NCBI GenBank assembly: GCA_018713605.1
Contig: DVOM01000001.1
Span: 67,158 to 131,157 of the forward strand
Origin: Candidatus Scatocola faecigallinarum
GTDB lineage: Bacteria; Pseudomonadota; Alphaproteobacteria; RF32; CAG-239
Length of the DNA: 64,000 nt
Reading direction: 5' to 3'
Part shown: piece by piece, positions 34,724-59,095 of the stretch
Position numbering within the stretch: the first letter of the stretch is position 1
How the letters are laid out: each line of letters starts with the position of its first letter
Translations under genes and position numbers: made by a program
The notes under the pieces: model-generated
Told to the model about the DNA's origin: nothing
Databases searched by the model: none
Seen by the model: only the letters and a program-made list of their open reading frames with translations

Positions 34724-35395
34724 CTATTCGAAATTATATTTGTATTTTTCATAATCGGCAAGGAGTTCTTCCGCATTAATGTCTTTTTTAATCCGAAAAA
34801 CGCACAAACTGTCCGCCCTCTCAACCTTGTCCAGATATTTCACGATCGGATGATATTTCCCGCGGAACCGGAAGTCATGGACGGCGATGAGCGGATTGTT
34901 CCCGCGCTGATGAATAATCGAAGCCAACACGCAGGCAACCCGGAAACGCCCGTCGGCCAGTATCAGGTCAAATTTTTGCGCCGTCTGCCTGAAAACCGCC
35001 TGCGAATAATCCGGAAACTTTTCACGCGCGCTTTCGTTGACCGGATATCCGCATTCTCCGAGCGGACCGATATCGGCCTGACAGATTTTAAGGCGGCCGC
35101 AGGCTTCGGCTTTGGCTATCACGTTTTTCCGGCGCAAGAACTCAAGCCAGCGGCTGTTGGCCTCCACGCTGCATACTTTTCCGCCCGAATTGCGCAAATA
35201 AAAAATCGTGCTGCCGCCCATGCCGAACTCCAGATAATTCCGGCTTTTCAGCACATATTTTTCAAAACATTTGCGCTCACGCCCGGTCATGATAAAATCA
35301 TAATCGGGAGCCGACTTGTTGCGAATGCTGATTTTAAGCCCAAGTACGACAAAAACCGTATGTTTTATCCGCTTGATTCTGTAAAACGGCCTCAC
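34724..35395 (-). CDS. Putative class I SAM-dependent methyltransferase-like protein (TylF/O-methyltransferase-like)
   Basis: 223 aa. LEFGMGGSTIF glycine-rich motif and downstream acidic residues. Weak assignment. Confidence 0.4.
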   Translation of the reverse strand: MRPFYRIKRIKHTVFVVLGLKISIRNKSAPDYDFIMTGRERKCFEKYVLKSRNYLEFGMGGSTIFYLRNSGGKVCSVEANSRWLEFLRRKNVIAKAEACGRLKICQADIGPLGECGYPVNESAREKFPDYSQAVFRQTAQKFDLILADGRFRVACVLASIIHQRGNNPLIAVHDFRFRGKYHPIVKYLDKVERADSLCVFRIKKDINAEELLADYEKYKYNFE

Positions 35396-36393: not shown

Positions 36394-36400
36394 AGCTTTC

Positions 36401-37549
36401 CTACCGTTTCAGCGTCAGCAAAGGCAAAAGATTAAACAGTTTAATCCAGGTTTTGTCTTTCTTGGAGCGCAGCGTAAGAAACGGAATAATTCCGAACAAA
36501 CTGATTTTCCTGATTTCCGTAATTTTGTACAACTCGGGAAAAAGCCCGCGATGTTCACGATACGTCCGGCATCCGGCCGCCGTTATCATGTACTTTATTT
36601 CGTCCTGAGTAAAGTTTTTGTATTCCAGACCGTCGCCGAGTATAACCCCATACAGTTTGACCATTTCGGCAAACATTTCCTCCTTGTACTCGTCGGCAAT
36701 CTTGTCAAAAAACGAACGCGAAGCAACATAAGCCTGTTTGCTCCAGGCTTCCCTGACCCCCTGCCCGTATGCCTTGTTGGCAATCAGAATATCACGGGCG
36801 CACAAAGCCTGATGAATGATTTTAATCAACTTGCGGCTTCTGACCTGCGACGACGAATTGGTGTTGTCGGTGTCGTTGCGGTAATAAACGAAAGGCTCAG
36901 GCAGCATGGTAATGCTCTCTGCTGCCGAATAGACGTCGGCACAGAACGGCCAGTCCTGATAGCAGGCTTCCGCCGATTCCTGAAAACGGATATGGTGCTT
37001 TTCCAAAAAATCCCGCCGATACAGCGCCGACCACAGGGAAGAATGATCCATGAACAAATTCGGCTTTTCTTCAAGCGTAAACACTTCGCCGCGTTTGGCC
37101 AGCTCCGTCCAGGGCTTGAACAAAAACATCTCGCCCTTCGCCGAATTTGTTACCCAGTAAAAATTGCCCTTGGTAATTTCGGCACCGGTTTTCTCCGCCT
37201 GCGCAAAGAGTTTCTCATACATGTCCGGCGCAATCCAGTCGTCAGATTCAATAATCCCGATATATTTTCCCCGTGCCCGGGCGATTCCGGCGTTTACTGC
37301 TTTTCCGTAGCCGCCGTTTGGCTGATGAATTGCCACGACGCGCGCGTCCTGCGCCGCATATTCGTCAACCATCTGCGGACAACGGTCCCGGGAACCGTCG
37401 TCTACCAAAATGACTTCCATGTTTTTGAAAGTCTGATTCAGAATGCTGTCCACGCACTGCTTCAGATACTTTTCCACCCCGTAAATCGGAACCACAACCG
37501 AAATATCAGGCTGCATTATTTTTCTCCTTTTTGGCAAAAACCTCGTCAA
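36401..37549 (-). CDS. Glycosyltransferase family 2
   Basis: ISVVVPIYGVEKYL...ILVDDGS (DxD), a typical GT-A N-domain. Confidence 0.85.
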   Translation of the reverse strand: MTRFLPKRRKIMQPDISVVVPIYGVEKYLKQCVDSILNQTFKNMEVILVDDGSRDRCPQMVDEYAAQDARVVAIHQPNGGYGKAVNAGIARARGKYIGIIESDDWIAPDMYEKLFAQAEKTGAEITKGNFYWVTNSAKGEMFLFKPWTELAKRGEVFTLEEKPNLFMDHSSLWSALYRRDFLEKHHIRFQESAEACYQDWPFCADVYSAAESITMLPEPFVYYRNDTDNTNSSSQVRSRKLIKIIHQALCARDILIANKAYGQGVREAWSKQAYVASRSFFDKIADEYKEEMFAEMVKLYGVILGDGLEYKNFTQDEIKYMITAAGCRTYREHRGLFPELYKITEIRKISLFGIIPFLTLRSKKDKTWIKLFNLLPLLTLKR

Positions 37550-38648
37550 ACAAAGCCAGAGCGCGGTTTACTGCCTTGTCCATGTCATAATACTTATAAT
37601 CGCCCAGCCGTCCCAGAAAATAAACGTTTTTGAGCTCTTTCGCCTTTTCCAGATAACGGTTGTACAAATTCTGGTTCTCGTCGCGGACAATCGGATAATA
37701 ACGGTCGTTTCTGCCGCGTTCAAAAGCCTCCGGATACTCAAACGAAACCACCGTATTTTCCGACTTGTCGTTCAAAAAGTACTTATATTCGCCGATACGC
37801 GTAAAATCGTGGTTTTCCGGATAGTTAATGACCGAATTGGACTGAAAATGCTCCCGCTCGTATTCGACAAAGTCAAAACGCAGGCTGCGGTAAGGCAGTT
37901 CGCCGAGCTCATAACCGAAATATTCGTCAATCGGCCCGCTGTAAAACACCCTCTCAAAGCTTTCCTTGTTCTCAAGCGAAGCATAATCCGTGTTCAACAA
38001 AACCTTAATCTTCGGATGGTCGAGCATTTCGGCAATCAGCGCCGAATAACCTTTCATCGGAATTCCCTGATACTTGTCCTGAAAATAGCGGTTGTCCTTG
38101 CTGACGTAAACCGGAACCCTGCCGGTAACCGCCGGATCCAGATCTTCGGGTTTCATTCCCCATTGCTTAAGCGTATAGCCGAGAAAAACCTTCTGATAAA
38201 CATATTCGGCCAGAAATTCAAGATCTTTGTCATTGGCCTTGCGCAGTTCCAAAATCGGCACCTTGACGTTAAAACCGAACTTTTCGATAAGCTTGTCCTC
38301 AAGCTTGTCGGCAATCGACTTCGGAAAAACCTTGCGGATGGAGTTCAGGTTAAACGGAATCGGTACTTCCTGCCCGTCGATTTTTCCTTTGACTTCGTGC
38401 ATATACGGATGCCATCTGGTAAAACGGCTCAGATATTTCCACACATGCTCCAGATTGGTGTGGAAAATATGCGTACCGTATTTATGGATACAGATGTTGT
38501 TCTTGTCATAATAGTCGTAAGAATTGCCGCCGATATGGTTTTTGGCGTCAATAACCAGAACTTCCTCGCCGAAATCCTCGGCAATTTTCCGAGCCATCGT
38601 CGCTCCGGAAAAACCGCAGCCGACAATCAGATTTTTTATGTTATGCAT
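37506..38648 (-). CDS. glf: UDP-galactopyranose mutase, copy 1
   Basis: 380 aa. FAD-binding LIVGCGFSGATMA. IHKYGTHIFHT and YYPI motifs. Confidence 0.9.
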   Translation of the reverse strand: MHNIKNLIVGCGFSGATMARKIAEDFGEEVLVIDAKNHIGGNSYDYYDKNNICIHKYGTHIFHTNLEHVWKYLSRFTRWHPYMHEVKGKIDGQEVPIPFNLNSIRKVFPKSIADKLEDKLIEKFGFNVKVPILELRKANDKDLEFLAEYVYQKVFLGYTLKQWGMKPEDLDPAVTGRVPVYVSKDNRYFQDKYQGIPMKGYSALIAEMLDHPKIKVLLNTDYASLENKESFERVFYSGPIDEYFGYELGELPYRSLRFDFVEYEREHFQSNSVINYPENHDFTRIGEYKYFLNDKSENTVVSFEYPEAFERGRNDRYYPIVRDENQNLYNRYLEKAKELKNVYFLGRLGDYKYYDMDKAVNRALALFDEVFAKKEKNNAA

Positions 38649-39489
38649 CCTGAACCTTCCATTTTTTCTTACCCAGACCCAAAGCCGTCAAAATTTTGCG
38701 CTTCAGCATCTTGTTTTTATACTTTCGCCATTCCTTTTCGTCCTCTTCCCAGAACAAAAGCGGCAGCTCCTTGATTTTAATGTTTTCCGTCTTCCGCAGA
38801 AATTCAATGTAAACGTTCATCAGACGCTCGGCGACAAAGCCGTAGACCCGCTTCTGATAATCGCTGCGTCTGACGACATCGTCCTGAATACGGCGTTCCA
38901 GTTCGCCCAAGACATCAAAAAGCCAAGCGCTGTAACGGTCAAAAAACGTTTTTGACGTTACCAGAATATTCATAAAATATCCCTCATTGGATTTTCTTAA
39001 AACCTCTTCCGCCGTTTCCGCCATGGCCGGGTATTTTTCTCCGATAATCTCAACCGCAGCGTCCAAATCGGCCGCAATGTGCTCATTGTTGTAATTCTCA
39101 TACAGAGAAACGCCTTTCGGACATTTCCTCGGCAGGATAACGTCATAGTTTCGACACAGAGCCAAAACGCCGGCTTCGGTCAGGCCGAACTTTTCGGCAA
39201 AATTGTCACCGAAAGTATGAAAAACCTTTTCCTTGGTTTTAAAATTCAGAAAACGACGATAATGAAACAGCCCCACATAGTTGGAACGGCAGTTTTTCCA
39301 AATCCAGTATTGGGCCGTCAGCTCGCAGTAAAAACGGTTTTTGCCCGAAATGTTCTCGCCTTCGCTGTCGCCTATCATATCAAGCTTTTCCGTACCGAGC
39401 GCACTGCCGACCTGAATGGGAACCAGAACGCTGCTCTTCTTTATCGGAGCAGGTCTGTGGCAGCAAACAAATATACTCACATCATTCAT
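38641..39489 (-). CDS. DUF4422-like protein, putative galactofuranosyltransferase, copy 1
   Basis: 282 aa. FVCCHRP...CELTAQYWIWKN motif. Linked to glf. Paralog of 54456..55493. Confidence 0.55.
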   Translation of the reverse strand: MNDVSIFVCCHRPAPIKKSSVLVPIQVGSALGTEKLDMIGDSEGENISGKNRFYCELTAQYWIWKNCRSNYVGLFHYRRFLNFKTKEKVFHTFGDNFAEKFGLTEAGVLALCRNYDVILPRKCPKGVSLYENYNNEHIAADLDAAVEIIGEKYPAMAETAEEVLRKSNEGYFMNILVTSKTFFDRYSAWLFDVLGELERRIQDDVVRRSDYQKRVYGFVAERLMNVYIEFLRKTENIKIKELPLLFWEEDEKEWRKYKNKMLKRKILTALGLGKKKWKVQDA

Positions 39490-46846: not shown

Positions 46847-48442
46847 CTATCCGGCAAAATCATAATAGGCTTTTATTTTCATACATGCGCCTTTTTTCTT
46901 GAATTTGTAGTGTCGAACCTGCTCTCCGGACGTGTCGAAACAATTAAAGCCGATAGCCGAAAAATGCTCATACGCCTCACGAACGGCACCTTTCTCAAAA
47001 AGAGAATGCCCCAGAAAATGATTAGCCTCTCCCCGAAAGCCCAGCATGTCCAAGATTGTCGGCGTCAGCGCCAGAGAGTTCAGTCCTCCGGCGTCCTTCT
47101 TTGCCGGCATTATAAATCTATTATAGAAAATCAGCGGCATTTCTCCGACAAAATAATCACATTCTCCAAACAATTCCGTAAAGTCACGTCCCGGATAGGT
47201 AGCATGATCGGAGGTAAAGACCAGTATCGTGTCTTTCGCAAAAGCTGACGCGTCAAACTTTTGCAGAAACGCTCCCAACCAGTAGTCCTGATTATAAAAC
47301 TTGTTCAGAAAACTGTTTTTGCCGTCATCATATTTTACATCGGGCGAATCAAGCCCGACATGTGTTCCCAGAACATAAGTCGCCAGAAAAAACGGACGCT
47401 TTCGTTCAGCAAGCCGCTGCGCCTCGGCAAAGAGATTTTCATACAGGCGCCTGTCCGACCAATTTTGCGCCGTTTTGCTACCAATAACCTCATCAAAGCC
47501 TATCCCCTTAACAAAAGTCTGAAAATTGTCACTTTCCGGATGCGGCGAAAGAAAAACCGTCTGATATCCGTTCTTTCTCAAAATCAACGGCAGACTTTCC
47601 GTCCTGCCCTTAAAATGTTCGTCGACAGCCTTCTTGTTTATTTCGGCAATACCCTGACCGCCGTAACTTCCGCCCAGCAGCTGAAAACCGGAAATCAACT
47701 GCCCGCGAATACCTCTGAACGTCGCCGCGGTATGATTGTAATAGTTTTCAAAACTGACACTTCTGTCGCGCAATTTAAAAGTGTGCGGCGTCAGTTTCTC
47801 AGATATGACTTCCGACGACATGCCCTCCGCAAATATCAAAATGACGTTTTTATTTTTTGTCATTTCATTTTGCCACAACGATTTTCCTTCTTCCACAACA
47901 TTTTTTCGATAAAACCGGCTGCCGTCGTCATATACCGGATTATAAGCCAGCTGATTATACACCTGCCCGACCGTCGCCGCGGCTGCCCGCAAAGGAAAAT
48001 TGTCAAAGCATAATTCCCCGGCACCCCATATTGCCATAATCCAGGCAAAGGTCCGAACTTTTTGAATCCGGAACCTGTGCGGCGGCAGACTTACCGCCAG
48101 AAACAACACGGCAACAAATGTCAGCTTCACTTGCGTTCCCGCCCCGACCGAAGACGCCGACGATAAATTCCAGAGCGTAAGCGGCTCAATATAACGCCCG
48201 GTAACAAAAACGCTACACAATTGCGCCGCCTGAACAAAAATCAACGGATACAACAGCAAAAACCTGAACCACTCGTTTTTTAAATGGCCGTTTAACAACA
48301 GAAGAAAAAACGCCTCAAACGTAAACAAAAAGGCAAATGATAAGTCAAAACCGAGCAACAGCGTAAAAATAAAGATAAAAATAATTCTAAACAATAAACC
48401 GGCCCATGCCGTAACCGGTTTCGGACAAATACAAACAGACAT
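46847..48442 (-). CDS. LTA-synthase/sulfatase-family membrane protein (phosphoglycerol or phosphoethanolamine transferase-like)
   Basis: 531 aa. N-terminal multi-TM domain, then an alkaline-phosphatase-like domain (ILIFAEGMSSE...FENYYNH). Confidence 0.75.
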   Translation of the reverse strand: MSVCICPKPVTAWAGLLFRIIFIFIFTLLLGFDLSFAFLFTFEAFFLLLLNGHLKNEWFRFLLLYPLIFVQAAQLCSVFVTGRYIEPLTLWNLSSASSVGAGTQVKLTFVAVLFLAVSLPPHRFRIQKVRTFAWIMAIWGAGELCFDNFPLRAAAATVGQVYNQLAYNPVYDDGSRFYRKNVVEEGKSLWQNEMTKNKNVILIFAEGMSSEVISEKLTPHTFKLRDRSVSFENYYNHTAATFRGIRGQLISGFQLLGGSYGGQGIAEINKKAVDEHFKGRTESLPLILRKNGYQTVFLSPHPESDNFQTFVKGIGFDEVIGSKTAQNWSDRRLYENLFAEAQRLAERKRPFFLATYVLGTHVGLDSPDVKYDDGKNSFLNKFYNQDYWLGAFLQKFDASAFAKDTILVFTSDHATYPGRDFTELFGECDYFVGEMPLIFYNRFIMPAKKDAGGLNSLALTPTILDMLGFRGEANHFLGHSLFEKGAVREAYEHFSAIGFNCFDTSGEQVRHYKFKKKGACMKIKAYYDFAG

Positions 48443-48630
48443 ATCTCCCCGCAGTAAAATTTTTACAGTTCACAAAATCACGAGGTTATATAACTTATTT
48501 TTCTGCAAAAGTAAATACTTATAAAAACAACATTTTTTTGTGTCTATTTTCCTGGCGCGAGACAAAACAAAGAACTTTCTTTTTATTGAACCTTGTGATA
48601 AAATTGTCCAAAAACGACAAGGAAAAAATC

Positions 48631-49806
48631 ATGCCCGCTCAGCTTATTATCGGCCGCAGATGTCCGAAAACGCCAGAAAATCCCGTCGGTTGGGAAGATG
48701 TCCCGCTCCAGGACATAAAATTTGACAAACCGACGGTTCTTTGCCTGAGCGGAGACGGAACCCTGACCGCCAGAGATGCAAATGCTATGGCCAAATATGC
48801 CGAACGCCTGCTGGGCAGAATTGGCCTTGAGGGACAAAGGGACATTCAAATTCTGTCCGCTTACTATCAAAACGCCAATGCCCGCGAAATGACCAACAGC
48901 CGTCTCTGCCATACCGAAGCGGACAAAAGCCGCTTTTCGGAAGAAGAGCGAAACCCCTCCTACATTTTTGATTTCTACGAACAATGTCTCAGAAAGATCA
49001 CACGGCAGAAAAACGGACGGAAAAGAGAAATTTCAGAAGCATGCAGGCTCATGCGAAATCTAAACGTTCTGGCCTTTTGTCACGGCGATTACGTTACCTG
49101 CAAACTGAATGAAATAATGAACGAAGACATGAAACGGCTTGGCTACACATCCGGCGAAACGGATGCCGTTGCCAGACAGGCTGCCGTCATTTCGGTCGTT
49201 CCGCAGGACAACCTGAAAAAATCATCTTTTACCAAAATCGGCTTTGTCTCGCTCGACGACTATCACTATGCCTCGGAAGACGCGTCAAACCTGACCGATT
49301 ATTACGAACTCGACTGCTGTGAAACGTCCTGTTTCGGCATTATTGAGCGAGAAAAAGAAGCCAGGAAAGGACGTTCGCGCCTGTTTTACATCGACAACCT
49401 GCTGGATTACAATTCCATTGAAGACAAATTTGCCGTTTGGATGGGCAAGACCGAAAAACTGCACCAGATGGACGCTTATATTGATTTAGATTATAAAAAC
49501 GAATTCGGAACCAAATCGGAAAACGGCCGCAATTTCGGACGCATGATTTCCCGCGCATTGCAAAACGCCGTATCAAACTCTTGCCGCAATTACCGTTCCC
49601 GGGAATTGATCGAATTGAAAACCGATGACATTTTCATAACCGAACCCGCAGGTTTTCGTCAGGGAAACGGGCAGCAAAATCAGGGCTATATTTCTCCGCA
49701 GGTTGAAAATGCCGTGGCCGAAGCACAGCGCCGGGGAACAAAAACGGACAGCAGCCTCTGCCCCTCCCAAACGCAATTCAGCATATTTCCTCATACGCGG
49801 GATTAA
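48631..49806 (+). CDS. Hypothetical protein (391 aa) with no recognisable domain
   Basis: Good SD AAGGA 8 nt upstream of the ATG. Sequence MPAQLIIGRRCPKTPENPVGWEDV.... Confidence 0.55.
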   Translation: MPAQLIIGRRCPKTPENPVGWEDVPLQDIKFDKPTVLCLSGDGTLTARDANAMAKYAERLLGRIGLEGQRDIQILSAYYQNANAREMTNSRLCHTEADKSRFSEEERNPSYIFDFYEQCLRKITRQKNGRKREISEACRLMRNLNVLAFCHGDYVTCKLNEIMNEDMKRLGYTSGETDAVARQAAVISVVPQDNLKKSSFTKIGFVSLDDYHYASEDASNLTDYYELDCCETSCFGIIEREKEARKGRSRLFYIDNLLDYNSIEDKFAVWMGKTEKLHQMDAYIDLDYKNEFGTKSENGRNFGRMISRALQNAVSNSCRNYRSRELIELKTDDIFITEPAGFRQGNGQQNQGYISPQVENAVAEAQRRGTKTDSSLCPSQTQFSIFPHTRD

Positions 49807-49847: not shown

Positions 49848-50375
49848 TCATCCTTCTTCAATACGGGCAAAGACAGCGTCATAGTCACTGAAACTGCGGC
49901 ACTTAACGACAGGAACCCGGCTTTGCGCCAAAAACTCGGCAATTTCCGCGTTGATTTCCCGTCCGATGAAGTCATAATCTCTGATTTTCTCCAATGTAAT
50001 CCGGCGATAATGATATGCCTGAACCGGCAAATCCTTGTCAATTTCCTTGCCTATTAGCTTTTTCGCCTTCCAAAAACGACAGGTAAAACGCCATATGGCA
50101 ACCAGACGGTTAATCCGCATGTCAACGATTAAATCCGGCTGCATTTTTTCGTACAGATAACGCTGGCACCCCTCGGAAACCCAGCTGTCCTTATGTTTTT
50201 TCAGAAAATCGTCCAGCTTGGCAAACTGTTCCTCCCGCGGATAATAACTGCCGCCGTCTGCGGTATTCCGGCAGATTTCATCTAAATTAAGCCGCGGCAG
50301 ATTAAATTTCCGGTTTATCGCATAGGCCAGCGAAGATTTCCCTGCGCCCAGCGGCCCGATTATAAGTACCTTCAT
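49848..50375 (-). CDS. P-loop NTPase, adenylate-kinase/FlaR-like small kinase
   Basis: MKVLIIGPLGAGKSSLA Walker A motif. 175 aa. Confidence 0.6.
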   Translation of the reverse strand: MKVLIIGPLGAGKSSLAYAINRKFNLPRLNLDEICRNTADGGSYYPREEQFAKLDDFLKKHKDSWVSEGCQRYLYEKMQPDLIVDMRINRLVAIWRFTCRFWKAKKLIGKEIDKDLPVQAYHYRRITLEKIRDYDFIGREINAEIAEFLAQSRVPVVKCRSFSDYDAVFARIEEG

Positions 50376-50462: not shown

Positions 50463-52541
50463 TCACAAGGTATATTTGTGCCTGTTGAGAACATGACGCT
50501 GATACTCGGGCGCCAATTCGGTAAAATATCCGCTCCAGCCCCAAACACGTACAATCAAATTCCTGTGATTTTCCGGATGAGCCATCGCGTCTTCCAGAAC
50601 AGCGGCATCAAGCACATTTAGCTGCAATTGCTGGTTTCCGACATGAACAAAATATTTAATCAGATTAACCAGTTTTGAAATTCCTTCGTCATACTTGAAA
50701 ATTGTCGGCGAAAGTTCAATCGTAATCGGACCGCCGTTGACAATTCTGGAATAGTCTATCCCCGCAAAGGACTTTAAAACACTTAAAACCCCATTAATTT
50801 TAACACCATGTGCCGGTGCCAGACTGGCAGACAGCGGCTCCCCGGCTCCGCGCCCGTCTTCAGAAGCGCCTATATAAGGCAAATCGGCAGAAACGGGCTG
50901 CGTCAGCAGGATATAAAACATCGCGGAACCTGAACCGGGACGGATACGGCTCCGGCGCGTAGAAATCATCTCGGCAGCCAGCGCAAATGAATCAAACAAA
51001 AATTTCAAATTTCGATTGGAAACCGCATCATTGTTTCCCAGTTTCGGCAGTTTTGTTTTCAAAAACGCCTTCAGTTCCTCATAACCGCAAAAATTCTTTT
51101 TCGTCGCCCTGTACAGTTCCTTCAATTTCGCATGAGGATAATTATCGGCAAAATATTCAATCGCTGTCATCATATCCGCGGCATTGGAACTTCCCGCTCC
51201 GTGAATGCCTACATGATGATATTTGCTGGCAAATTCCACTTCTCTTGCTTGCTCCAAAGCGCCATCAACAAAAAGACACCCCAATGGACATGGCAAAAAA
51301 TGTATATCGCACACTTTTTGAATATGCCTGATTTGACGCCACATATCCCATTTAATCAGCTGTCGAAACAAAAATTTTGAAAAAAGCGGCAGTTTGACAG
51401 CCAGTTTAAAAGCCCTGTGCACGGCATAAGGAAAAGACACGGCGCTTTTATTGACAATTTCCACGCCCTTGCTCGGAATAACAAATTCCCAACAGGCCGC
51501 GACAGTATAGTTACGTGCATCTTCCAACGAATAGCCGTTTTTTACCAAAGCAGGTATAACGACCTCATCATTCGAATATTGCGGAAACCCCAAACCGCAT
51601 TCGGTCAGCATACAGGCCGTTTTCAGCAAATCATCGGGCGTGTTCCGATCAATTCGCAAATTTATTTTCGGATCTATCAGCTTTAAGTCTTTCGAAACCT
51701 CCATCATCAGATAGGTCAGTTCATTAACGGCAGGGTTCCCCTCCCCGTCACAGCCGCCCAGCATAACCGTCTGTCCGTTGTCTCCCTGCTGGACGCCAAA
51801 GTATGTATCGCTGTCACGGTTAAAAGAAATGAAAAATTCAGCAAACAAATCCCGCGCCTGTTCTTTGGTCAGCGTTTTTCTCTGCAAGTCTCTCAGATAA
51901 AAAGGATACAGATACTGATCCATGCGCCCCAAACCAATATGCGCGCAACCGGCATAATACAGCAACGCACTCATTAATCGAATAGACTGCATTGCCTCCT
52001 GCAGCGTCTTGGCACCGTACAGAGGAACCCGACGAAAACTTTCCGCCACCGAATGATTTCCGGCGGCTTCGGCTGCTGCCTCATAACGTTCGGCAAGGTT
52101 GGCAACAGCCTCGATGACGATGACAGCCGCTTCCAAAAAATCACGTTTTTGTTTATCTTTGGTTTTTGACAGTTTTTCTCGACAGAGTTCCAAACGGCCG
52201 GATAAGCCCTCGTTCAGGAGCTTTTCCCAATTTATGGTCAGATTGTTCAACGGGTGCAGTACTGCATCCTTTTCCACACCCAACGCTTTTTTTGCCTCCT
52301 TCGGCTCGTAATATGCCGGAACATTGTTGACGGTTCGGACAAAGGAAATCTTTTCGTCAGGAAAGACAATCGGCTCCAAAGCCTCACAGGAAATTTTAAA
52401 AGCAAGAGCGGCCCTTTTTTCCAAAGACAGATTTTTGCCCTTGAACTCGCCGACAAAATCAAATGTCCAGTCATGCCTGTATTTTTTGAACAGACGCTGC
52501 TGCGTAAAATCTCTCAACTCGCGAAGTCTTTTATTTAACAC
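50463..52541 (-). CDS. Glycyl radical enzyme (PFL2/glycerol-dehydratase-like family), substrate unknown
   Basis: C-terminal glycyl-radical motif VRVWGWSGYFTELAPEYQRHVLNR, which aligns with RVAGYSAFFVEL...PEMQRE. Cys loop AACWEF (C-x-E). Start set at the GTG at 52541, preceded by AAGGAG with a 6-nt spacer. Overlaps the activase stop. Confidence 0.85.
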   Translation of the reverse strand: MLNKRLRELRDFTQQRLFKKYRHDWTFDFVGEFKGKNLSLEKRAALAFKISCEALEPIVFPDEKISFVRTVNNVPAYYEPKEAKKALGVEKDAVLHPLNNLTINWEKLLNEGLSGRLELCREKLSKTKDKQKRDFLEAAVIVIEAVANLAERYEAAAEAAGNHSVAESFRRVPLYGAKTLQEAMQSIRLMSALLYYAGCAHIGLGRMDQYLYPFYLRDLQRKTLTKEQARDLFAEFFISFNRDSDTYFGVQQGDNGQTVMLGGCDGEGNPAVNELTYLMMEVSKDLKLIDPKINLRIDRNTPDDLLKTACMLTECGLGFPQYSNDEVVIPALVKNGYSLEDARNYTVAACWEFVIPSKGVEIVNKSAVSFPYAVHRAFKLAVKLPLFSKFLFRQLIKWDMWRQIRHIQKVCDIHFLPCPLGCLFVDGALEQAREVEFASKYHHVGIHGAGSSNAADMMTAIEYFADNYPHAKLKELYRATKKNFCGYEELKAFLKTKLPKLGNNDAVSNRNLKFLFDSFALAAEMISTRRSRIRPGSGSAMFYILLTQPVSADLPYIGASEDGRGAGEPLSASLAPAHGVKINGVLSVLKSFAGIDYSRIVNGGPITIELSPTIFKYDEGISKLVNLIKYFVHVGNQQLQLNVLDAAVLEDAMAHPENHRNLIVRVWGWSGYFTELAPEYQRHVLNRHKYTL

Positions 52542-53310
52542 GTTTTTCTCCTTCCATATGAACCCGATACCCTTTTTCCTCTGCCGTTTTTTTAAAACGG
52601 CGGATAATATCCATATCGTTTCTGATACCTTTGTGAAGCTGAAACCTTTTACCGAAAGTTTCATATTTTGCCCCGGCCAGTTCATTGTAGGGCAACAAAT
52701 CTATACTTTCCGGCCTGTTAGGAAGTTTCTCTAAAATACGGCCGATTCGATTTAAATTATCTTCTGTATCGGTTATTTGCGGAATCAGCGGAATTCGGAC
52801 ATGGAAAGGAATTGCCCTTTCGGACAAAGCCATCAGGTTATCCAGAATTATGCGGTTGGACTCCCCCGTATATTTCCGATGTTCCTCATCATCGGCAAGC
52901 TTTACGTCAAAATAGACCTTACTGAACATTGCTGCCAGTTTTAAAAACTTTTCGGCATCGCAATACCCCGAAGTGTCCAGTATCGTATGTATATCGGTCA
53001 GCTTTGGCAGCAGTTCCGTCAGAAAATCAGCCTGGCAGGACGGTTCTCCTCCCGAAAAAGTCACGCCGCCGCCGGAAAGTTCAAATACGTCGCGAAAAGA
53101 ATTTAACCTTTCCGCCAACCTGTCCGCCGTCCAGTTTTCTCCGCAGATTTCTCTGGTTTTCAAATTAAGTTCGGGAAAAAATTCCTGAGTTTCCGGATTA
53201 TGACACCACCGGCAGCGTAACGGGCACCCTTTCAGAAATACGGTAACCCGAATACCCTCCCCGTCATGAATGGTAAATTCCTTTATGTCACAAATACAGG
53301 CCGTTTTCAT
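52531..53310 (-). CDS. Glycyl-radical-enzyme activating protein (radical SAM)
   Basis: CPLRCRWCHNPE gives the CxxxCxxC cluster. 259 aa, typical size. Immediately upstream of the GRE. Confidence 0.85.
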   Translation of the reverse strand: MKTACICDIKEFTIHDGEGIRVTVFLKGCPLRCRWCHNPETQEFFPELNLKTREICGENWTADRLAERLNSFRDVFELSGGGVTFSGGEPSCQADFLTELLPKLTDIHTILDTSGYCDAEKFLKLAAMFSKVYFDVKLADDEEHRKYTGESNRIILDNLMALSERAIPFHVRIPLIPQITDTEDNLNRIGRILEKLPNRPESIDLLPYNELAGAKYETFGKRFQLHKGIRNDMDIIRRFKKTAEEKGYRVHMEGEKRVK

Positions 53311-54446
53311 TTATAGCTTTTATATTTCTTCTTATACTTCTGCTTAACTTTTCCCAAAGTCGCACAATACAGCATTCTGAAAAACAGATATTTCAGAAAA
53401 CTCTTTTTACCGGATTGCATCTGTTCTATGCGGACAATGCCGCTTTCCACCTGAGACAAACGGTTTTCCAGCCACCGGAGACGATTTTCGTTCTCATATT
53501 CCTTCAACGGACACATCGCTATCGGAAAAGGCAGCTTAAGAAACCGCTCATACGCCAAACGCATCTGCGGCAGCAAATCTCTGTTCTCTTCGCGCTGGGT
53601 AAAGAAACAGATGTGAACCATCGGCACGCTCAAATCCGCTACAATTTTCTTATTGTTTTTCCGACAATAGGAATAAGTCTGATATTCGTCGTCCGTATGC
53701 CCGATGTTAATGTCCGTCCAAAAAGACTTCTTAAAAAGCATACAGTTTATCGAATACCTCTCCCTGTTGTCGACTTCCCGATACGGCAGTTTCTGAACTG
53801 CCCGGACGTAGTCTTCCGGATGCAGCGTCGTCTGATTGTGAATCCATCTGGCGTAAAAAGGCAAAGCCCAAACGCTTCCGCCGCCGCCCGGATGTATTCT
53901 CCCCTTTTCCACAAAACGATACTTCAGGGAATCATTATCGTTCTTCACACCAATGTAATGCGCTACCGATATTTTCTGAAACTCGCCATCCAGCCCCATC
54001 GCTTCGACAACCTGTTTAAATCCCCAGGGGTTGTTGTTGACTAAGGACGTAACATACCCAAGTTTCCGCCCATACTTACGATACGAATTCTCGTAACAGG
54101 CAATCAGTTTTTCAAGCCAGTCGGACGTCAGCGGAAAAACGTCGTCGTCAACTTTGCAGATATAGTCATAGGACTTCATCTCGTCGCTTTCAAGCAATGT
54201 CTTAATACTGACAAAGGGCGCGCCGGGCTGAATCCAATCGACAACCGTAATCTGTTTCGGAAACATCTTCTGATACCGCAGACAAACCCTGTATGTCCTT
54301 TCCGTATCATATGTTCCCCGTCCGTTTTGCAGCAGATAAATATGAACATTCGGATTGGTCAGCTTCGTATAGGCTGCCAACGCAATTTCCAGGGCTTCAT
54401 AATCAGCATAACATAACTGAACAATCGCAATTTTCTTCAAGTTCAT
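53307..54446 (-). CDS. Putative glycosyltransferase (DxD-containing), unknown family
   Basis: 379 aa. KVDDDVFP motif. ATGA overlap with the activase start. Sits in a glycan operon. Confidence 0.4.
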   Translation of the reverse strand: MNLKKIAIVQLCYADYEALEIALAAYTKLTNPNVHIYLLQNGRGTYDTERTYRVCLRYQKMFPKQITVVDWIQPGAPFVSIKTLLESDEMKSYDYICKVDDDVFPLTSDWLEKLIACYENSYRKYGRKLGYVTSLVNNNPWGFKQVVEAMGLDGEFQKISVAHYIGVKNDNDSLKYRFVEKGRIHPGGGGSVWALPFYARWIHNQTTLHPEDYVRAVQKLPYREVDNRERYSINCMLFKKSFWTDINIGHTDDEYQTYSYCRKNNKKIVADLSVPMVHICFFTQREENRDLLPQMRLAYERFLKLPFPIAMCPLKEYENENRLRWLENRLSQVESGIVRIEQMQSGKKSFLKYLFFRMLYCATLGKVKQKYKKKYKSYK

Positions 54447-54455: not shown

Positions 54456-55493
54456 CTATATTTTCTTACCGTTAACCGTCATCGGCAAACTGTTTTTCAG
54501 TTTCTGCCGGTACGCTTTTCGCATTTGTTTAAACTGCCGCCTTTTTTCGCCCGCACACACTTTTGACAAAAGATAATATCCGAAATACCGGCAGCGCATT
54601 TTCCAGAGGCTTTCCTGATCAACGTCCGTATTCTGAACCATCATCACATCGGCTTCATAAGCTCTCATTCCCTTCTTCTCAATCATATACTGGAAATAGG
54701 CCGAATACAGCAGCTCGCCCAAATATGCAATTGTCCGCTTTCCGTTCGGCGAATATTCAGACACATCAAGAATCCGGTTAAAACCGGACAAAATCGGAAA
54801 TACAAAACCGGCATATTCCATAAATATCTTTTTGGAAGTTATCATCGACATATAAAGATATTTTTTCGGCTTGTATGAAAGCTGCTCCATAAAATTGCCA
54901 AAATCTTCATCTGCGGTTTTCACGTAAGCGATAAAATTTTCATAATCTTTCAGTTTGGTCCCTTCGATTCTGGCTGTAAAATCTTCTCTGATATCTTTCA
55001 GATTAATCAAAGAAAAATCCGAAAGACGCGGTAGCACCACGTCATATTTCTGCAACAGGGACAAAACGTTTTTTTCCGAAAGTCCCATTAAATCCAAATA
55101 CCGCTTGTCCGGGCTGCTCATCGTAAACATTGAATAACACCGGTCATGATTGTTTCTTTCAATATCTTTTCCCAAGGAACTCAAAATCAACTGCCGCCGA
55201 TACTGCATAAATCCGATAAAATCAGGATTTCCGACCGCGTCAAAATTCTTCCACGCCCAGTATTGAACCGTCATTTCGCAAAAATTTCGATTCAAACGGG
55301 AAATATTGTCACCACTATCATCGCCAATCGTATTCTTTTGCATCCACTTAATCTGTTCCGGCGTCAAAAAACCGTCCCGGGACTCTGACATTGCCACTGC
55401 ACGGCCGGCATGTACAGGAATCAACAAATCGTTTTTAAACAAATAAGTCGGCTTAAAATACGCCAACAGAATTTTGACTTTAGGTTTTACCAT
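54456..55493 (-). CDS. DUF4422-like protein, putative galactofuranosyltransferase, copy 2
   Basis: CEMTVQYWAWKN and the N-terminal pattern are paralogous to 38641..39489. Confidence 0.55.
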   Translation of the reverse strand: MVKPKVKILLAYFKPTYLFKNDLLIPVHAGRAVAMSESRDGFLTPEQIKWMQKNTIGDDSGDNISRLNRNFCEMTVQYWAWKNFDAVGNPDFIGFMQYRRQLILSSLGKDIERNNHDRCYSMFTMSSPDKRYLDLMGLSEKNVLSLLQKYDVVLPRLSDFSLINLKDIREDFTARIEGTKLKDYENFIAYVKTADEDFGNFMEQLSYKPKKYLYMSMITSKKIFMEYAGFVFPILSGFNRILDVSEYSPNGKRTIAYLGELLYSAYFQYMIEKKGMRAYEADVMMVQNTDVDQESLWKMRCRYFGYYLLSKVCAGEKRRQFKQMRKAYRQKLKNSLPMTVNGKKI

Positions 55494-56602
55494 TAATACA
55501 ACTCCTTAAACAAAGCCAATGCTCTCGCAACGGCAACATCCATATTGTAATATCTGTAATCGCCCAACCGGCCGAAGAAATGAACATTCTTGCAATTTTC
55601 GGCCAGAAGCAGATACCGATTGTACAATTCAAGATTTTTATCTTGCGGAACGGGATAATACCGCTCATTTTTTCCGCGTTCGAAAGCCGCCGGATATTCC
55701 AGCGAAATAACCGTCCTGTCGGACTTGTCGTTGAGAAAATACTTATGCTCGCAAATACGCGTAAAGTCATAATTGTTCGGATAACTTACCACAACGCCGT
55801 TCTGAAAATAAGGCGTATTCTCCTCTCTGATGTCAAACTCCAAACTCCGGTAAGGAAGTTCTCCCAGCTCATAGTTAAAAAACTCGTCAATCGGCCCCGT
55901 ATAATAGACATTCTCCGCTTCAAAATTCTCCGCGTCATAAGGCGTATTCAACCTTACCTCAATAAGCGGATGAGCCAGAATATTCCCAATCATTTTGGTG
56001 TATCCGTCCTGCGGAATGGCCTGATAGCGGTCGACAAAATAGTCGTCATTGGTGGACACGCTCACGGGAACGCGTTCGGCAACCGCCGGATCCAGTTCTT
56101 CCGGCGTTACGCCCCACTGCTTTTTATAATAATTCAGAAAACCTTTCCGGTAGATGTAATCCGCCAGAAAAGACAGGTCGGCGTCATCCTGCTCTCTGAG
56201 TTTCAAAATGGACAGCCGGTTGCCGTATCCGACAATATTGATAAGTTTTTGGCTGATTCTCTGCGCCATGTCTTCGGGAAAGCATTTCTTCAAACTGTTC
56301 AGATTAAACGAAAACGGAACCGTCTTCCCGTCAATGTAAGCCTGTACTTTCAGAAAAAACGGATGCCATTTGGTAAAACGCGACAAATAATGCCAGACCT
56401 CTCCGTTTGAGGTATGAAAAATATGCGGTCCGTATTTATGAATGCAAATGCCGTTTTTATCCCGATAATCAAAACAGTTTCCGCCGATATGTCCTCTGGC
56501 GTCAATAACCAGAACCGGCTCATTCAAAACGCCTGCAATCCGTTCGGCCATAACCGCGCCGGACAAACCGGCGCCGACGACCAGATGTTTAATCTTGCGC
56601 AT
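55493..56602 (-). CDS. glf: UDP-galactopyranose mutase, copy 2
   Basis: 369 aa. LVVGAGLSGAVMA FAD motif. Roughly 60% identical to copy 1 over its length. Confidence 0.9.
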   Translation of the reverse strand: MRKIKHLVVGAGLSGAVMAERIAGVLNEPVLVIDARGHIGGNCFDYRDKNGICIHKYGPHIFHTSNGEVWHYLSRFTKWHPFFLKVQAYIDGKTVPFSFNLNSLKKCFPEDMAQRISQKLINIVGYGNRLSILKLREQDDADLSFLADYIYRKGFLNYYKKQWGVTPEELDPAVAERVPVSVSTNDDYFVDRYQAIPQDGYTKMIGNILAHPLIEVRLNTPYDAENFEAENVYYTGPIDEFFNYELGELPYRSLEFDIREENTPYFQNGVVVSYPNNYDFTRICEHKYFLNDKSDRTVISLEYPAAFERGKNERYYPVPQDKNLELYNRYLLLAENCKNVHFFGRLGDYRYYNMDVAVARALALFKELY

Positions 56603-57425
56603 AGGCTTTTTCCTTATGAAGTTTCAGATAATTCATCAACACCGACCTGTTGCGGCGACAGCTGTCAGACAGTTCCTGAGGTGTAAACGGCGATACGAAC
56701 CGGTGCAGTTTGTCCACGTTCAGAACAAACTGATCCCGCGGCGGAACGTTTCCCTCAAAGAAAATATGTTCTTCGCCGACAATGTCTGTCAGAAGTCTTT
56801 CCAAAGACAGGGCAAAACCGGCTCCGACATTGATTATCCCGGACACTTTCTTATGAATGAGAACACTAAGCGCCTTTTGCAGATAATCTCTGGTAATAAA
56901 ATCTTTCCTTGTTTCCGGATTCTCCGTAACAATCAGCTTGCCACGGGTTAAAATGCTTTCGCTGATCCACCCCATAAAGGTCTTATATCCCGTCCTGTTG
57001 ACCGGTTCACCCAAAACGTTAGCCACCCGTACAATCAGAGATTGTCCCGGAATTATCCCCTGAATAGCCTTTTCGGCTGCCGCCTTGTTTTTGGCATAAG
57101 CGTCAAGCGGCTGCAACGGCGCTGTCTCGGCAATCTCGTCAGCCAAATTCCGGGAACCGTAAACTTTGCGGGAAGAAATCATTACCAGTTTTGTCTCCGA
57201 ACCTTTTATCATCCGAGCCAGTTTTACGTCCAATAACTCGTCCTGCGACAACGTTTTACAGCTAAACTCCGGCTGTATCGTAAAATTAATAACAGCGTCA
57301 AAACGCTTTATTTCCTCTTTGTCGACATAATCCAGCCTTGGAAAACTCATAACGTCGTCCGATATGAACACGTTTTGCAAATTCCGAGCTAAATAGGCGT
57401 CATTACCGATTACAGCCACTTTCAT
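56589..57425 (-). CDS. NAD-dependent epimerase/dehydratase (SDR) family protein
   Basis: N-terminal KVAVIGNDAYLARNL Rossmann motif. 278 aa. Confidence 0.7.
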   Translation of the reverse strand: MKVAVIGNDAYLARNLQNVFISDDVMSFPRLDYVDKEEIKRFDAVINFTIQPEFSCKTLSQDELLDVKLARMIKGSETKLVMISSRKVYGSRNLADEIAETAPLQPLDAYAKNKAAAEKAIQGIIPGQSLIVRVANVLGEPVNRTGYKTFMGWISESILTRGKLIVTENPETRKDFITRDYLQKALSVLIHKKVSGIINVGAGFALSLERLLTDIVGEEHIFFEGNVPPRDQFVLNVDKLHRFVSPFTPQELSDSCRRNRSVLMNYLKLHKEKAYAQD

Positions 57426-57546: not shown

Positions 57547-58173
57547 TCACGAATATTGAGTATGGTCGCGGTTTTCGGCATTTTTACTCTGCAACAAACG
57601 TCCGACTTCGGGATTTTGAGCCAGAAAGTTATAAAGCGACACGACGGAAATACCGGCTTCCTGTGCTGCCCTCTTTCGCGAAACGCCGGACAGCAGCCTG
57701 GAAACGATAAGCTCTTTCTTCCCGTCCCAAACACGCTTTTTATTCTTGCTGCCCAAACAGCGCCCGAGTTTGCAGCCGCTCGCCTTTTTCTCGTCAAGAG
57801 AGTTTTTGGTAATCGTCGAAACCATGCTGTTGCGTATTTCAATAGACAAAGCCAGCCCCTTCAGCAGCAAATCGGTTTCCGAAGACGGCTTTAGAACCAG
57901 CTTTTCCTTAACACAGACCAGATTCAGCCCTTTTCCGAGAAACGCCTTCAGATTTTCAACAATCACCGCCAGAGAATTTCCCAAACTGGCAACATTGGCG
58001 CACAAAACCGTATGCCCGGTCGTTTGAAAACCGGCTTCCATATTCCGTATATCCGTTTCCGAAACATACATGTCGACGGCAAAATCATTGTCTGCGGCAT
58101 ATTGTTCAATTACCCGCCGCTGTTTCTCAACCGCAATGTTTTTTCCGCCAATGTCCAAATACCCGATAACCAT
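57547..58173 (-). CDS. Serine-recombinase paralog with degenerate catalytic residues but a retained C-terminal HTH; putative regulatory pseudo-recombinase. It is the first gene of glycan operon 2.
   Basis: MVIGYLDIGGKNIAVEKQ in place of the MxxGYxRVSTxxQ nucleophile motif. ASLGNS in place of SRLGRN. The HTH RKRAAQEAGISVVSLYNFL is retained. It is co-linear with the adjacent intact invertase. Start set at the ATG preceded by GAAGG. Confidence 0.7.
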   Translation of the reverse strand: MVIGYLDIGGKNIAVEKQRRVIEQYAADNDFAVDMYVSETDIRNMEAGFQTTGHTVLCANVASLGNSLAVIVENLKAFLGKGLNLVCVKEKLVLKPSSETDLLLKGLALSIEIRNSMVSTITKNSLDEKKASGCKLGRCLGSKNKKRVWDGKKELIVSRLLSGVSRKRAAQEAGISVVSLYNFLAQNPEVGRLLQSKNAENRDHTQYS

Positions 58174-58197
58174 ACAAACCTTCGCCATCATACCATC

Positions 58198-58214
58198 TAA
58201 CGAACGATATTTTT
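58198..58214. repeat. Left 17-bp inverted repeat taacgaacgatattttt
   Basis: Perfect reverse complement of 58326..58342. Confidence 0.9.
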
Positions 58215-58325
58215 TCTTGTACTTTATGTGGGTAATTTTTGCAATACCTTTTTATAAGAAATCACAATAATTTTCTACCTTTTTTATAGGTTAACACATT
58301 TTTCTCTACCGGTAACGCCTTGGGC

Positions 58326-58342
58326 AAAAATATCGTTCGTTA
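58326..58342. repeat. Right 17-bp inverted repeat aaaaatatcgttcgtta
   Basis: Perfect reverse complement of 58198..58214. Its core CGTTCGT resembles a recombinase half-site. Confidence 0.9.
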
Positions 58343-58391
58343 AATTTACAAACATCAATTATTGCTGTTTTTCTATATGAAATACAACCTG

Positions 58392-58991
58392 TTAAGCTTT
58401 AGGTATACCTGCAAGAAAATTATAAATCGTTTTACTGCTTACCTTCATAATGCGGGCAATCTGCGCCTTTTTCATTCCACCCTGATATAAACTGATTATC
58501 TCATCCTCTCTGCCGTCAAGAATATGCCTTTTGTTCTTCGTGCCGAATTCGCGCCCCAGTTTGCGTCCGCTGGCCTTGATTCTGGCCAGAGCCTCTTTGG
58601 TTCTCTGTGAAATAAGATTACGTTCAATTTCCGCCGAAAGCGAAAACGCAAAAGCCAGAACCTTGCTTTGAATATCAGCTCCGAGCCGATAGCGATCTTT
58701 AATTGTCCAAACCTGAACTTCTTTGTTCATACAGATGTTAAGCATTGTCATAATCTGCAAAATATTGCGCCCCAGACGGGAAATTTCCGTACAAATCAGC
58801 ACATCGCCCTTTTTAAGTTTCCTGATCATTTTTCCAAGTTTCCTCTCTTCAAAATCCTTGGTTCCGCTGATTGTCTCCGTTATCCATCTGTCAATTTGTA
58901 TTTTTTCCCCAGTACAAAAATTATTGATTTCAAATTTCTGATTCTCAAGTGTCTGCCTGTCCGTACTCACTCTGACATATCCGTATATCAT
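58392..58991 (-). CDS. Small serine recombinase (DNA invertase, Hin/Gin/Mpi-like) with intact catalytic residues
   Basis: MIYGYVRVSTDRQ carries the catalytic Ser. SRLGRN and AEIERNLISQRT are present. C-terminal HTH KAQIARIMKVSSKTIYNFL. 199 aa from the internal ATG. Confidence 0.85.
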   Translation of the reverse strand: MIYGYVRVSTDRQTLENQKFEINNFCTGEKIQIDRWITETISGTKDFEERKLGKMIRKLKKGDVLICTEISRLGRNILQIMTMLNICMNKEVQVWTIKDRYRLGADIQSKVLAFAFSLSAEIERNLISQRTKEALARIKASGRKLGREFGTKNKRHILDGREDEIISLYQGGMKKAQIARIMKVSSKTIYNFLAGIPKA

Positions 58992-59034
58992 TTTAATCTC
59001 CGTAAAAAGCTTAAGTATATTTCCGCCGTGCAAT

Positions 59035-59067
59035 AAAGAAACGCCCCGCAGATTGTATCTGCGGGGC
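59035..59067 (-). terminator. Strong hairpin terminator (10-bp stem) downstream of the GNAT gene
   Basis: gccccgcaga-ttgta-tctgcggggc. Confidence 0.7.
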
Positions 59068-59095
59068 AAAAACACCAAATGTTACCTACGAAAAA

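Follow-up and report, generated by a model that had tools for sequence, protein, structure and literature searches.

A stretch of 64,000 nucleotides from Candidatus Scatocola faecigallinarum (contig DVOM01000001.1; hereafter the window, at its full length) encodes, on the minus strand at 50463-52541, a 692-residue glycyl radical enzyme (GRE) whose gene is joined to that of its activase and to an operon of UDP-galactopyranose mutase (Glf) and glycosyltransferase genes. On balance, we think it probable that this locus specifies a predicted working GRE system dedicated to the sugar chemistry by which a phase-variable surface glycan containing galactofuranose (Galf) is made. Sequence comparisons place the enzyme in a distinct, highly conserved family that has no characterised member, and the gene neighbourhoods of this family point to radical modification of a galacto-configured sugar as the likeliest role.

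The GRE gene occupies part of a minus-strand open reading frame (ORF) at 50463-52685, which holds an in-frame GTG at 52541 preceded by the Shine-Dalgarno sequence AAGGAG. The start position is equivalent in all aligned homologues (MLxxRLxxLRDF), and independent gene calls in 10 metagenome assemblies give the same 692-residue product. The protein matches the PFL-like domain PF02901 with 261 bits and the Gly_radical domain PF01228 with 76 bits against a cut-off of 22. A preliminary description, made from the letters of the DNA, had recognised the GRE by its radical-glycine motif and C-x-E loop, and both Pfam and alignment to glycerol dehydratase bear this out. In that alignment the Gly loop of the enzyme is matched by RVWGWSGYF, with the predicted radical Gly668, and its Cys loop by AACWEF, with the predicted thiyl Cys350 and Glu352. 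The C-terminal RVWGW conforms to the superfamily motif RVxG[FWY] and pairs with RVAGY, while Cys350 in the finger loop pairs with Cys433. An AlphaFold2 model (pLDDT 89.9, pTM 0.90) shows the PFL-like ten-stranded barrel fold, and its sole low-confidence internal segment is the QQGDNGQ loop at residues 250-255. Foldseek aligns the model with glycerol dehydratase, CutC (choline trimethylamine-lyase), propanediol dehydratase, Archaeoglobus fulgidus pyruvate formate-lyase 2 (PFL2), HypD, and PflD at template modelling (TM) scores of 0.79-0.86 and 20-23% identity; of the solved chains, A. fulgidus PFL2 gives the best sequence match (227 bits). With 692 residues against 764-837 in the closest solved structures, the enzyme is indeed short for a GRE, as had been remarked. 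A cognate radical S-adenosylmethionine (SAM) activase is encoded by the overlapping gene. These comparisons confirm the window protein as a genuine superfamily member with its own activase, and the two are predicted to form a functional pair. The protein is indexed in 395 assembly blocks, its cluster has a single named member, which comes from a metagenome-assembled genome (MAG) of Alphaproteobacteria and is called “pyruvate formate lyase family protein”, and the GRE locus is identical in all ten independent gut assemblies.

A protein search recovers many relatives of about 690 residues that are 46-71% identical to the window GRE. Across an alignment of 24 sequences, LIVRVWGWSGYF, the core A348-x-C-W-E-F353, QQGDNG, LIDPK, and NLR are all invariant. 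The peptide patterns LIVRVWGW and QQGDNGQ[ST] match at least 599 stretches, 578 of which encode relatives; the scan covered one genome per species, so that the family extends to at least 578 species. Their labels include Chloroflexota, Planctomycetota, Verrucomicrobiota, Lentisphaerota, Melainabacteria, Bacillota, Acidobacteriota, Spirochaetota, and gut Alphaproteobacteria, and the family is common in human gut metagenomes. Within the family, identity over the best-aligned segment ranges from 38 to 71%, compared with 20-23% to any solved GRE. Among 84 full-length members, C350-W351-E352, N364, and G253-D-N-G-Q257 are invariant, N100 is present in 83, and R665-V-W-G668-W-S is kept with a single exception at V666, leaving W667, G668, and W669 invariant. 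C350 is the only invariant cysteine. The RVWGW motif, which the preliminary description called unusual, is so, and it is a property of all 84 members rather than a peculiarity of the window gene. The unusual position is the Trp that precedes the radical Gly; the Trp that follows it, to which the same description had also drawn attention, occurs in A. fulgidus PFL2 as well (RVAGWSAYF).

Alignment to solved GREs, from which all statements about the active site derive, suggests how the family relates to the known classes. Cys433, Glu435, and the Gly763 loop of glycerol dehydratase correspond to C350, E352, and the G668 loop. His164 and Asp447, which in glycerol dehydratase assist the departure of the hydroxyl group, correspond to N100 and N364, and the Tyr339 loop is replaced by Q251-Q-G-D-N-G-Q257, which is two residues longer; N100, N364, and this loop are specific to the family. 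It would therefore keep the radical relay and the base of the eliminase and isomerase classes, and the mapping argues against a classical diol dehydratase, because both His164 and Asp447 equivalents are Asn although the CxE motif is present. Membership among the pyruvate formate-lyases was likewise rejected: the AACWE loop has a single Cys in place of an adjacent Cys-Cys pair, which argues against C-C cleavage of that type, and TIGR01255 is matched with only 72 bits against a cut-off of 994. The sugar-directed GREs YbiW and PflD are 20% and 21% identical to the window protein, which scores 234 bits against a cut-off of 1109 on the corresponding isomerase profile NF007437. The equivalog profiles for PflD, HypD, HpsG/HpfG, CutC, indoleacetate decarboxylase, and HPAD give 140-234 bits against cut-offs of 1000-1150, and even the generic PFL2/glycerol-dehydratase subfamily TIGR01774 is reached with 305.6 bits, below its cut-off of 678.2. 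The tight grouping with a characterised metabolic GRE that would have spoken against a new role is thus not observed, since no equivalog cut-off is reached and identity stays at 20-23%.

The activase gene (52531-53310, minus strand, 259 residues) matches the glycyl-radical-activase profile TIGR02494 with 219 bits against a cut-off of 174, and its product carries the motif C29-x3-C33-x2-C36 (CX3CX2C). The TIGR02494 match falls into two stretches that skip approximately profile positions 45-95, and the second cluster motif CxxCxxCxxxC was not found in the activase sequence. This activase is of the short type: it lacks the ferredoxin-like auxiliary-cluster insert typical of activases for eliminase GREs, despite the eliminase-like CxE loop of its partner.

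The GRE and its activase are translationally coupled into a Glf/glycosyltransferase operon, as had been described from its overlaps. The GTG start of the GRE and the stop of the activase gene share 11 nt (52531-52541), and an ATGA at 53307-53310 joins the activase start to the stop of a 379-residue ORF (53307-54446, minus strand). This neighbour had been called a glycosyltransferase. It has no family match in Pfam or NCBIfam, belongs to a family of about 380-residue proteins with an invariant D100-D-D102, and yields an AlphaFold2 model (pLDDT 86.5) whose top Foldseek matches in the PDB are almost all GT-A glycosyltransferases (E ~1e-6); the name is justified at the level of the predicted fold. 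Upstream lie genes for a DUF4422 protein (54456-55493, minus strand, 345 residues, PF14393 with 135 bits), which is a presumed glycosyltransferase and whose designation as a Galf-transferase is an annotation-level assumption, and for Glf itself (55493-56602, minus strand, 369 residues), which exceeds the TIGR00031 cut-off with 413 against 304 bits and marks the locus as a predicted one for Galf. The first biosynthetic gene encodes a short protein of 278 residues that resembles short-chain dehydrogenases/reductases (SDR) or epimerases (56589-57425, minus strand, PF01370 with 39.5 bits). It has only weak NCBIfam matches and an N-terminal glycine-rich motif that looks degenerate, and it is conserved in the locus of an Alphaproteobacteria relative (L001). 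The order is thus SDR-like protein, Glf, DUF4422 protein, GT-A transferase, activase, and GRE, with gene ends that overlap or abut.

The preliminary description had placed the GRE and activase at the end of the operon. They are its last conserved genes, but they may not end the transcript: a gap of 87 nt separates the GRE from a downstream gene for a 175-residue P-loop protein resembling nucleoside monophosphate kinases (49848-50375, minus strand), and only past this gene does a terminator-like hairpin first occur. The P-loop gene may be a last, non-conserved member of the operon, in which case the GRE is not its final cistron; beside the GRE of L001 (71% identity) it is not conserved.

Upstream of the operon lies a genuine invertible switch, which would make the operon phase-variable. 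The 151-bp element (58195-58345) consists of 20-nt inverted repeats (58195-58214 and 58326-58345) around a 111-nt core. In nine of ten independent metagenome assemblies the core is the exact reverse complement of that in the window (99-100% identity), and one assembly has the orientation of the window; the repeat arms are identical in all ten, each of which carries an identical GRE. One further contig (L099) terminates just upstream of the switch. Adjacent to it is a gene for a serine recombinase of the resolvase/invertase type with an HTH_7 domain (58392-59078, minus strand, PF00239 with 114 bits; the likely start is the ATG giving MIYGYVRVSTDRQ), which is the probable invertase. Between the switch and the operon, as the first ORF downstream of the former, a 214-residue resolvase paralogue (57547-58191, minus strand, PF00239 with 24.5 bits) falls into one cluster with the recombinase next to it. 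Where the catalytic YxRVST motif should stand, its sequence reads GYLDIGGKN, and it may serve as a regulator or an accessory factor of inversion. A scan limited to sigma-70-like promoters found none within the switch in either orientation. The product had earlier been proposed to be a variable glycan, and the occurrence of this upstream switch in both orientations in natural populations supports that proposal independently.

To relate the operon to those of other organisms, the neighbourhoods of the GRE were compared within 10 kb in each direction (where Glf, galE, or galT is called absent, this refers to the locus and not to the genome). ORFs of relatives were taken from a simple longest-ORF script and markers from single-sequence BLAST, so that the counts below are approximate; MAG taxon labels may be wrong; and L and P numbers label the relatives' loci and proteins. 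Every relative of the window clade examined lies in a glycan locus beside a dedicated glycosyltransferase, so that the linkage noted in the window is conserved; the MAGs and genomes in question are labelled as approximately seven phyla. The locus of the Alphaproteobacteria MAG (L001, 71% identity) is syntenic with the window. In an uncultured bacterium (L003), epimerases, a flavoprotein, an FrhB-pyruvyltransferase fusion, a DUF4422-GT8 fusion, and a 385-residue GT-A homologue precede the activase and GRE; DUF4422 is also fused to GT8 in L087, and homologues of the 379-residue protein stand directly upstream of the activase in both L001 and L003. A Melainabacteria locus (L004) comprises Glf, GT2, DUF4422, two GlfT2-like proteins, activase, GRE, and an NTP-transferase. 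The gut cluster of P0028, with 570 member sequences, has GlfT2-like and FrhB-pyruvyltransferase proteins, an extra radical SAM protein, activase, and GRE. Parablautia muri (P0083) has three GT2 proteins, Wzm/Wzt-like ABC proteins, activase, a Glft2_N protein, GRE, a ricin lectin, and MBOAT. Planctomycetaceae (P0112) have GlfT2, GLF, a GlfT2-like protein, a methyltransferase, and GRE, and the locus of P0071, of unlabelled source, has three DUF4422 proteins, GT2, activase, a GlfT2-like protein, GRE, and GLF. A Desulfovibrio MAG (P0111) shows GT2, GLF, GT2, GlfT2, a radical SAM protein, a GlfT2-like protein, activase, and GRE. Arrangements comparable to these are found for P0067, P0036, and P0014 from gut metagenomes, and L005 is a further glycan-linked locus.

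In these loci the activase and GRE adjoin either the 380-residue GT-A protein or a GlfT2-like transferase of about 600 residues, and proteins with Glft2_N and GlfT2_domain3 replace the DUF4422 and 379-residue proteins of the window. The GlfT2-like partners form one orthologous group (29-71% identity) that is distinct from the canonical GlfT2-like paralogues of the same loci. A profile comparison of this group with the 379-residue GT-A family gave a probability of 4.9% and demonstrated no orthology. GLF shares the locus with the GRE in 8 of about 14 distinct glycan loci. Where transport genes are visible they are of the ABC type, and neither Wzx nor Wzy was seen in those loci; ABC-type export fits a glycan that is completed in the cytoplasm, where it would be accessible to an oxygen-sensitive GRE. 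Fusions of an FrhB-like Fe-S/flavin domain to a polysaccharide pyruvyltransferase recur beside the activase-GRE pair in L081 (4827-8232), L102 (4841-8228), L003 (3671-6145), and L101 (11237-13513); a second conserved radical SAM protein of 319-358 residues recurs beside the pair in L081, L102, and L089 (5174-6250). These extra proteins are homologous to one another and not to the radical SAM-SPASM protein of the window (35392-36393).

Most of the members retrieved live in a different setting, which the preliminary description overlooked: its glycan-locus context holds for the window clade, while the majority of 80 retrieved species loci are for galactose and arabinose utilisation. This prevalence narrows the substrate to a galacto-configured sugar. 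Among the 65 loci of at least 8 kb used in a marker count, 5 have glycan markers only, 43 catabolic markers only, none both, and 17 neither; an activase was found in 48. The catabolic loci carry a CUT2-type ABC transporter (binding protein, ATPase, and permease) or a sugar transporter of the major facilitator superfamily, together with LacI, AraC, or XylR regulators. A true galactokinase (GalK) directly follows the GRE in L024, L031, and L062; L073 encodes aldose 1-epimerase (GalM) and a GH36 alpha-galactosidase; and Anaerolineae loci encode L-arabinose isomerase (AraA, 827 bits), L-ribulose-5-phosphate 4-epimerase (AraD), and an FGGY kinase. Glycoside hydrolases (GH) of families GH51, GH127, GH2, and GH32 also surround these GREs. 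When 73 neighbours of catabolic-clade GREs that lie on the same strand and had no annotation were searched with Pfam, they proved to include only regulators, Zn-dependent dehydrogenases, and assorted hydrolases, and no further universal partner emerged. When the binding proteins were compared with YtfQ, the galactofuranose binder of E. coli, their best PDB matches were uncharacterised proteins or binders of glucose, ribose, or arabinose, and the transporters gave only sub-threshold NCBIfam matches to many sugar systems. A theme restricted to furanoses is not supported, as the GH2 neighbours match beta-galactopyranosidases and the GH51 proteins are distant relatives of arabinofuranosidases; galacto-configured sugars are the safer reading.

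Two further features of catabolic loci were observed. In the Anaerolineae loci L007, L009, L014, L016, L019, L022, L040, and L043, up to four MtaA/CmuA-like methyltransferases of the URO-D fold and an MtgC-like corrinoid protein are encoded directly upstream of the activase, approximately 3-10 kb upstream of the GRE. L009, L014, L022, L040, and L043 have L-arabinose isomerase downstream, with additional arabinose-catabolism genes in some, and there may be a link among methyl transfer, the GRE, and arabinose catabolism in these organisms. In L048 (17033-20843), two proteins of the ADP-ribosylglycohydrolase family, one with CBM4_9, are encoded in a LacI-regulated sugar-transport locus beside the GRE, an unusual occurrence of this family in a carbohydrate locus.

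A rough neighbour-joining tree without support values clusters the GREs of glycan loci, with the exception of Planctomycete sequences. Between the two clades, 171 alignment columns are conserved and identical and 5 discriminate, which suggests one shared chemistry on related substrates. Because the Galf-glycan and galactose/L-arabinose contexts are mutually exclusive yet related, and because the conserved residues are nearly identical, a galacto-configured substrate appears likeliest for both.

A mechanism consistent with these features can be proposed. The short activase would use S-adenosylmethionine to place a radical on Gly668, from where it would move to Cys350, and the resulting thiyl radical would abstract hydrogen from a hydroxyl-bearing carbon of the galacto-configured sugar. 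In the window, the most likely substrate would be the Galf unit that Glf provides, whether still in the form of UDP-Galf or after its transfer by the partner glycosyltransferase. Glu352 may act as the base on the hydroxyl of the carbon from which hydrogen has been abstracted; such abstraction at a carbinol carbon with deprotonation of the hydroxyl is suggested by the retention of the Cys and the Glu. The substrate radical could then undergo a redox-neutral change, either cleavage of a neighbouring C-O bond to a deoxy-keto sugar or inversion of the centre, before hydrogen is returned to the product. Loss of the His/Asp pair argues against simple elimination of water. The options that remain are cleavage of a C-O bond whose leaving group can depart without being protonated, opening of a ring or ether, and inversion of a centre, among which we have no preference. 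The reaction might target the exocyclic 5,6-diol or a ring carbinol, either in UDP-Galf or in the Galf residue at the end of a growing galactofuran, and its deoxy-keto or epimerised product may form a new antigenic residue or cap the chain before export by an ABC transporter. An attractive idea is that a change to the exocyclic 5,6-diol of a terminal Galf would remove the acceptor hydroxyls of a GlfT2-type polymerase and so cap the chain. In its most specific form, which we put forward tentatively and hold to be somewhat less likely than not, the window enzyme would be the first GRE of glycan biosynthesis, acting on Galf with a GlfT2-like or GT-A partner, and the sister clade would use the same chemistry on galactose- or arabinose-type sugars in anaerobic catabolism.

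Several points weigh against the assignment to Galf-glycan modification. The substrate is deduced from gene neighbourhood rather than from biochemistry, and nearly identical conserved residues sit uneasily with a UDP-sugar or polymer substrate in the glycan clade and a free monosaccharide in the catabolic clade. About half of the glycan-clade loci show no Glf over 9-10 kb, and the Planctomycete GREs with GlfT2/Glf context fall outside the main glycan clade of the rough neighbour-joining tree. The Asn residues at the positions of His164 and Asp447 leave a water-eliminating dehydratase mechanism not well supported, the single conserved Cys makes an epimerase mechanism with two hydrogen donors awkward, and the phylum range leans on MAG labels that may be unreliable.

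The main rival explanation is that the GRE supplies precursors: it would interconvert gluco- and galacto-configured sugars, or by some other isomerisation bring a sugar or its 1-phosphate into the galactose/L-arabinose series or out of it. It would parallel GalE/GalT by radical means, providing substrate for Glf in glycan loci and drawing off galactose in catabolic ones. Galacto-configured sugars are central in all contexts (Glf/GlfT2, GalK, GalM, AraA/AraD), GalT and GalE were not seen beside GalK in the relatives' loci, the GRE operons of L004 and L102 have NTP_transferase genes next to them, and Asn in place of general-acid residues fits a reaction without a leaving group. This explanation accounts for all contexts equally well except the dedicated transferase: the constant pairing of the GRE with one particular glycosyltransferase is unexplained. 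In addition, a second hydrogen donor is not obvious beside a single invariant Cys, and GalE is cheap and ubiquitous, offering no obvious rationale for a radical replacement. We regard precursor supply as unlikely. The same pairing with a glycosyltransferase and Glf is left unexplained if the enzyme is instead a small-molecule eliminase, dehydrating or cleaving a diol, polyol, or ether (glycerol, propanediol, and glyceryl or methyl ethers being candidates) to give a glycan decoration or a fermentation intermediate. In favour of this, the closest folds are those of glycerol dehydratase, CutC, and propanediol dehydratase, and the CxE motif is kept. Some GREs of the catabolic clade have Zn-dependent alcohol dehydrogenases and GFO/IDH/MocA oxidoreductases in their vicinity, the activase-GRE pairs of Anaerolineae are flanked by MtaA-like methyltransferases and a corrinoid protein, and a phosphoglycerol-transferase-like gene lies nearby in the window. 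Nonetheless, other residues stand at the positions of His164, Asp447, and Tyr339, the protein stays below every equivalog and subfamily cut-off (TIGR01774, 305.6 against 678.2 bits), and the relatives' GREs have no conserved microcompartment shell or aldehyde dehydrogenase genes nearby, so that we consider an eliminase of this kind improbable.

It is very improbable that the GRE forms or uses up furanose donors as a second kind of pyranose-furanose mutase, one that works without flavin. Genes resembling furanosyltransferases do co-occur with it, furanosidase families (GH51, GH127, and GH32) appear in the other clade, and about half of the glycan-clade loci have no Glf; yet Glf stands directly beside the GRE in the operons of the window, L087, L100, L086, and L089, which points to sequential rather than redundant roles for the two enzymes. 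The catabolic clade would need no such mutase, since the two ring forms of a free sugar exchange spontaneously, and its GH2 neighbours resemble beta-galactopyranosidases. By analogy with the chemistry of GRE eliminases, moreover, a C2 radical of a UDP-sugar would expel UDP instead of contracting the ring. Least credible of all is the absence of any functional link, with a metabolic GRE pair having landed by chance behind the genes of a glycan operon. Pairs of a GRE and its activase do move as modules, and the gene that follows the GRE varies between relatives, but start/stop overlaps tie the GRE to its operon, adjacency to an orthologous glycosyltransferase recurs across about seven labelled phyla, and all ten independent gut assemblies keep the arrangement unchanged.

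Compared with known systems, we rate the window GRE as a known catalytic platform in a hitherto undescribed functional setting. A. fulgidus PFL2 (2F3O) shares with it the Trp after the radical Gly, a CxE-type loop (GCVE), and the barrel fold (TM score 0.79), but it is approximately 23% identical, has 776 residues, carries Ala before the Gly and His at the position of N100, and lacks QQGDNGQ; we know of no substrate or link to glycan genes for it. Glycerol dehydratase (1R8W) and propanediol dehydratase (5I2G), GRE 1,2-eliminases that cleave C-O bonds, are top structural matches (TM scores 0.82-0.84). Relative to them, the window enzyme is about 90 residues shorter, its activase lacks the auxiliary-cluster insert, and it has no microcompartment context. 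The highest TM score (0.86) is to E. coli PflD, which has the CxE motif in common but retains His and Asp at the positions of N100 and N364, where the window GRE has Asn. The searched portions of a June 2026 review of GREs (PMC13450708) name only YbiW and PflD as acting on sugars: these open the rings of 1,5-anhydroglucitol-6-phosphate and 1,5-anhydromannitol-6-phosphate by redox-neutral C-O cleavage with a CxE motif. YbiW and PflD are catabolic, use 6-phosphate substrates, and have no linkage to Glf or glycosyltransferases, whereas the window GRE lies in a glycan operon. The characterised GREs covered by those portions of the review serve catabolism, nucleotide reduction, and hydrocarbon activation, and none builds a cell-surface glycan (PMC13450708). 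Our full-text literature search found no publication tying a GRE to galactofuranose, arabinofuranosidase loci, or polysaccharide gene clusters.

Polysaccharide loci of gut Bacteroides are phase-variable through invertible promoters flipped by site-specific recombinases. The switch in the window resembles these in being a small segment between short inverted repeats directly upstream of a glycan operon, with an adjacent recombinase and both orientations present. It differs in its alphaproteobacterial host, in having no detectable sigma-70-like promoter inside, and in the degenerate recombinase paralogue that heads the operon.

The GRE family is distinctive in combining its breadth (at least 578 species) with an active-site signature of its own and clade-wise ties to either Galf biosynthesis or galactose/arabinose use. 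Its reaction, once known, would add new sugar-directed radical chemistry and could account for the formation or breakdown of unusual galacto-configured sugars by strict anaerobes. It could also bring to light a surface antigen, subject to phase variation, of a gut alphaproteobacterium that is common but uncultured. Because mammals have no Galf metabolism, Galf-linked enzymes are of interest as selective targets.

Further genes surround the operon. A second Galf operon (32931-39489, minus strand), 11-17 kb away, encodes a DUF4422 protein, a second Glf (37506-38648), GT2, the radical SAM-SPASM protein, a 223-residue ORF, and an ABC_membrane/ABC_tran exporter. Just downstream of the GRE operon are a membrane protein with a sulfatase/phosphoglycerol-transferase (LtaS-like) domain (46847-48442, minus strand) and an ORF of approximately 392-422 residues without a family match (48538-49806, plus strand), both of which are kept in all ten assemblies. 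In L090 (13955-18079), compared with L091-L098, a LysR/PfkB block downstream of the GRE locus has been replaced; this strain-level rearrangement moves an acetyltransferase, a metallophosphatase, and a second DUF4422/Glf pair much closer to the GRE.

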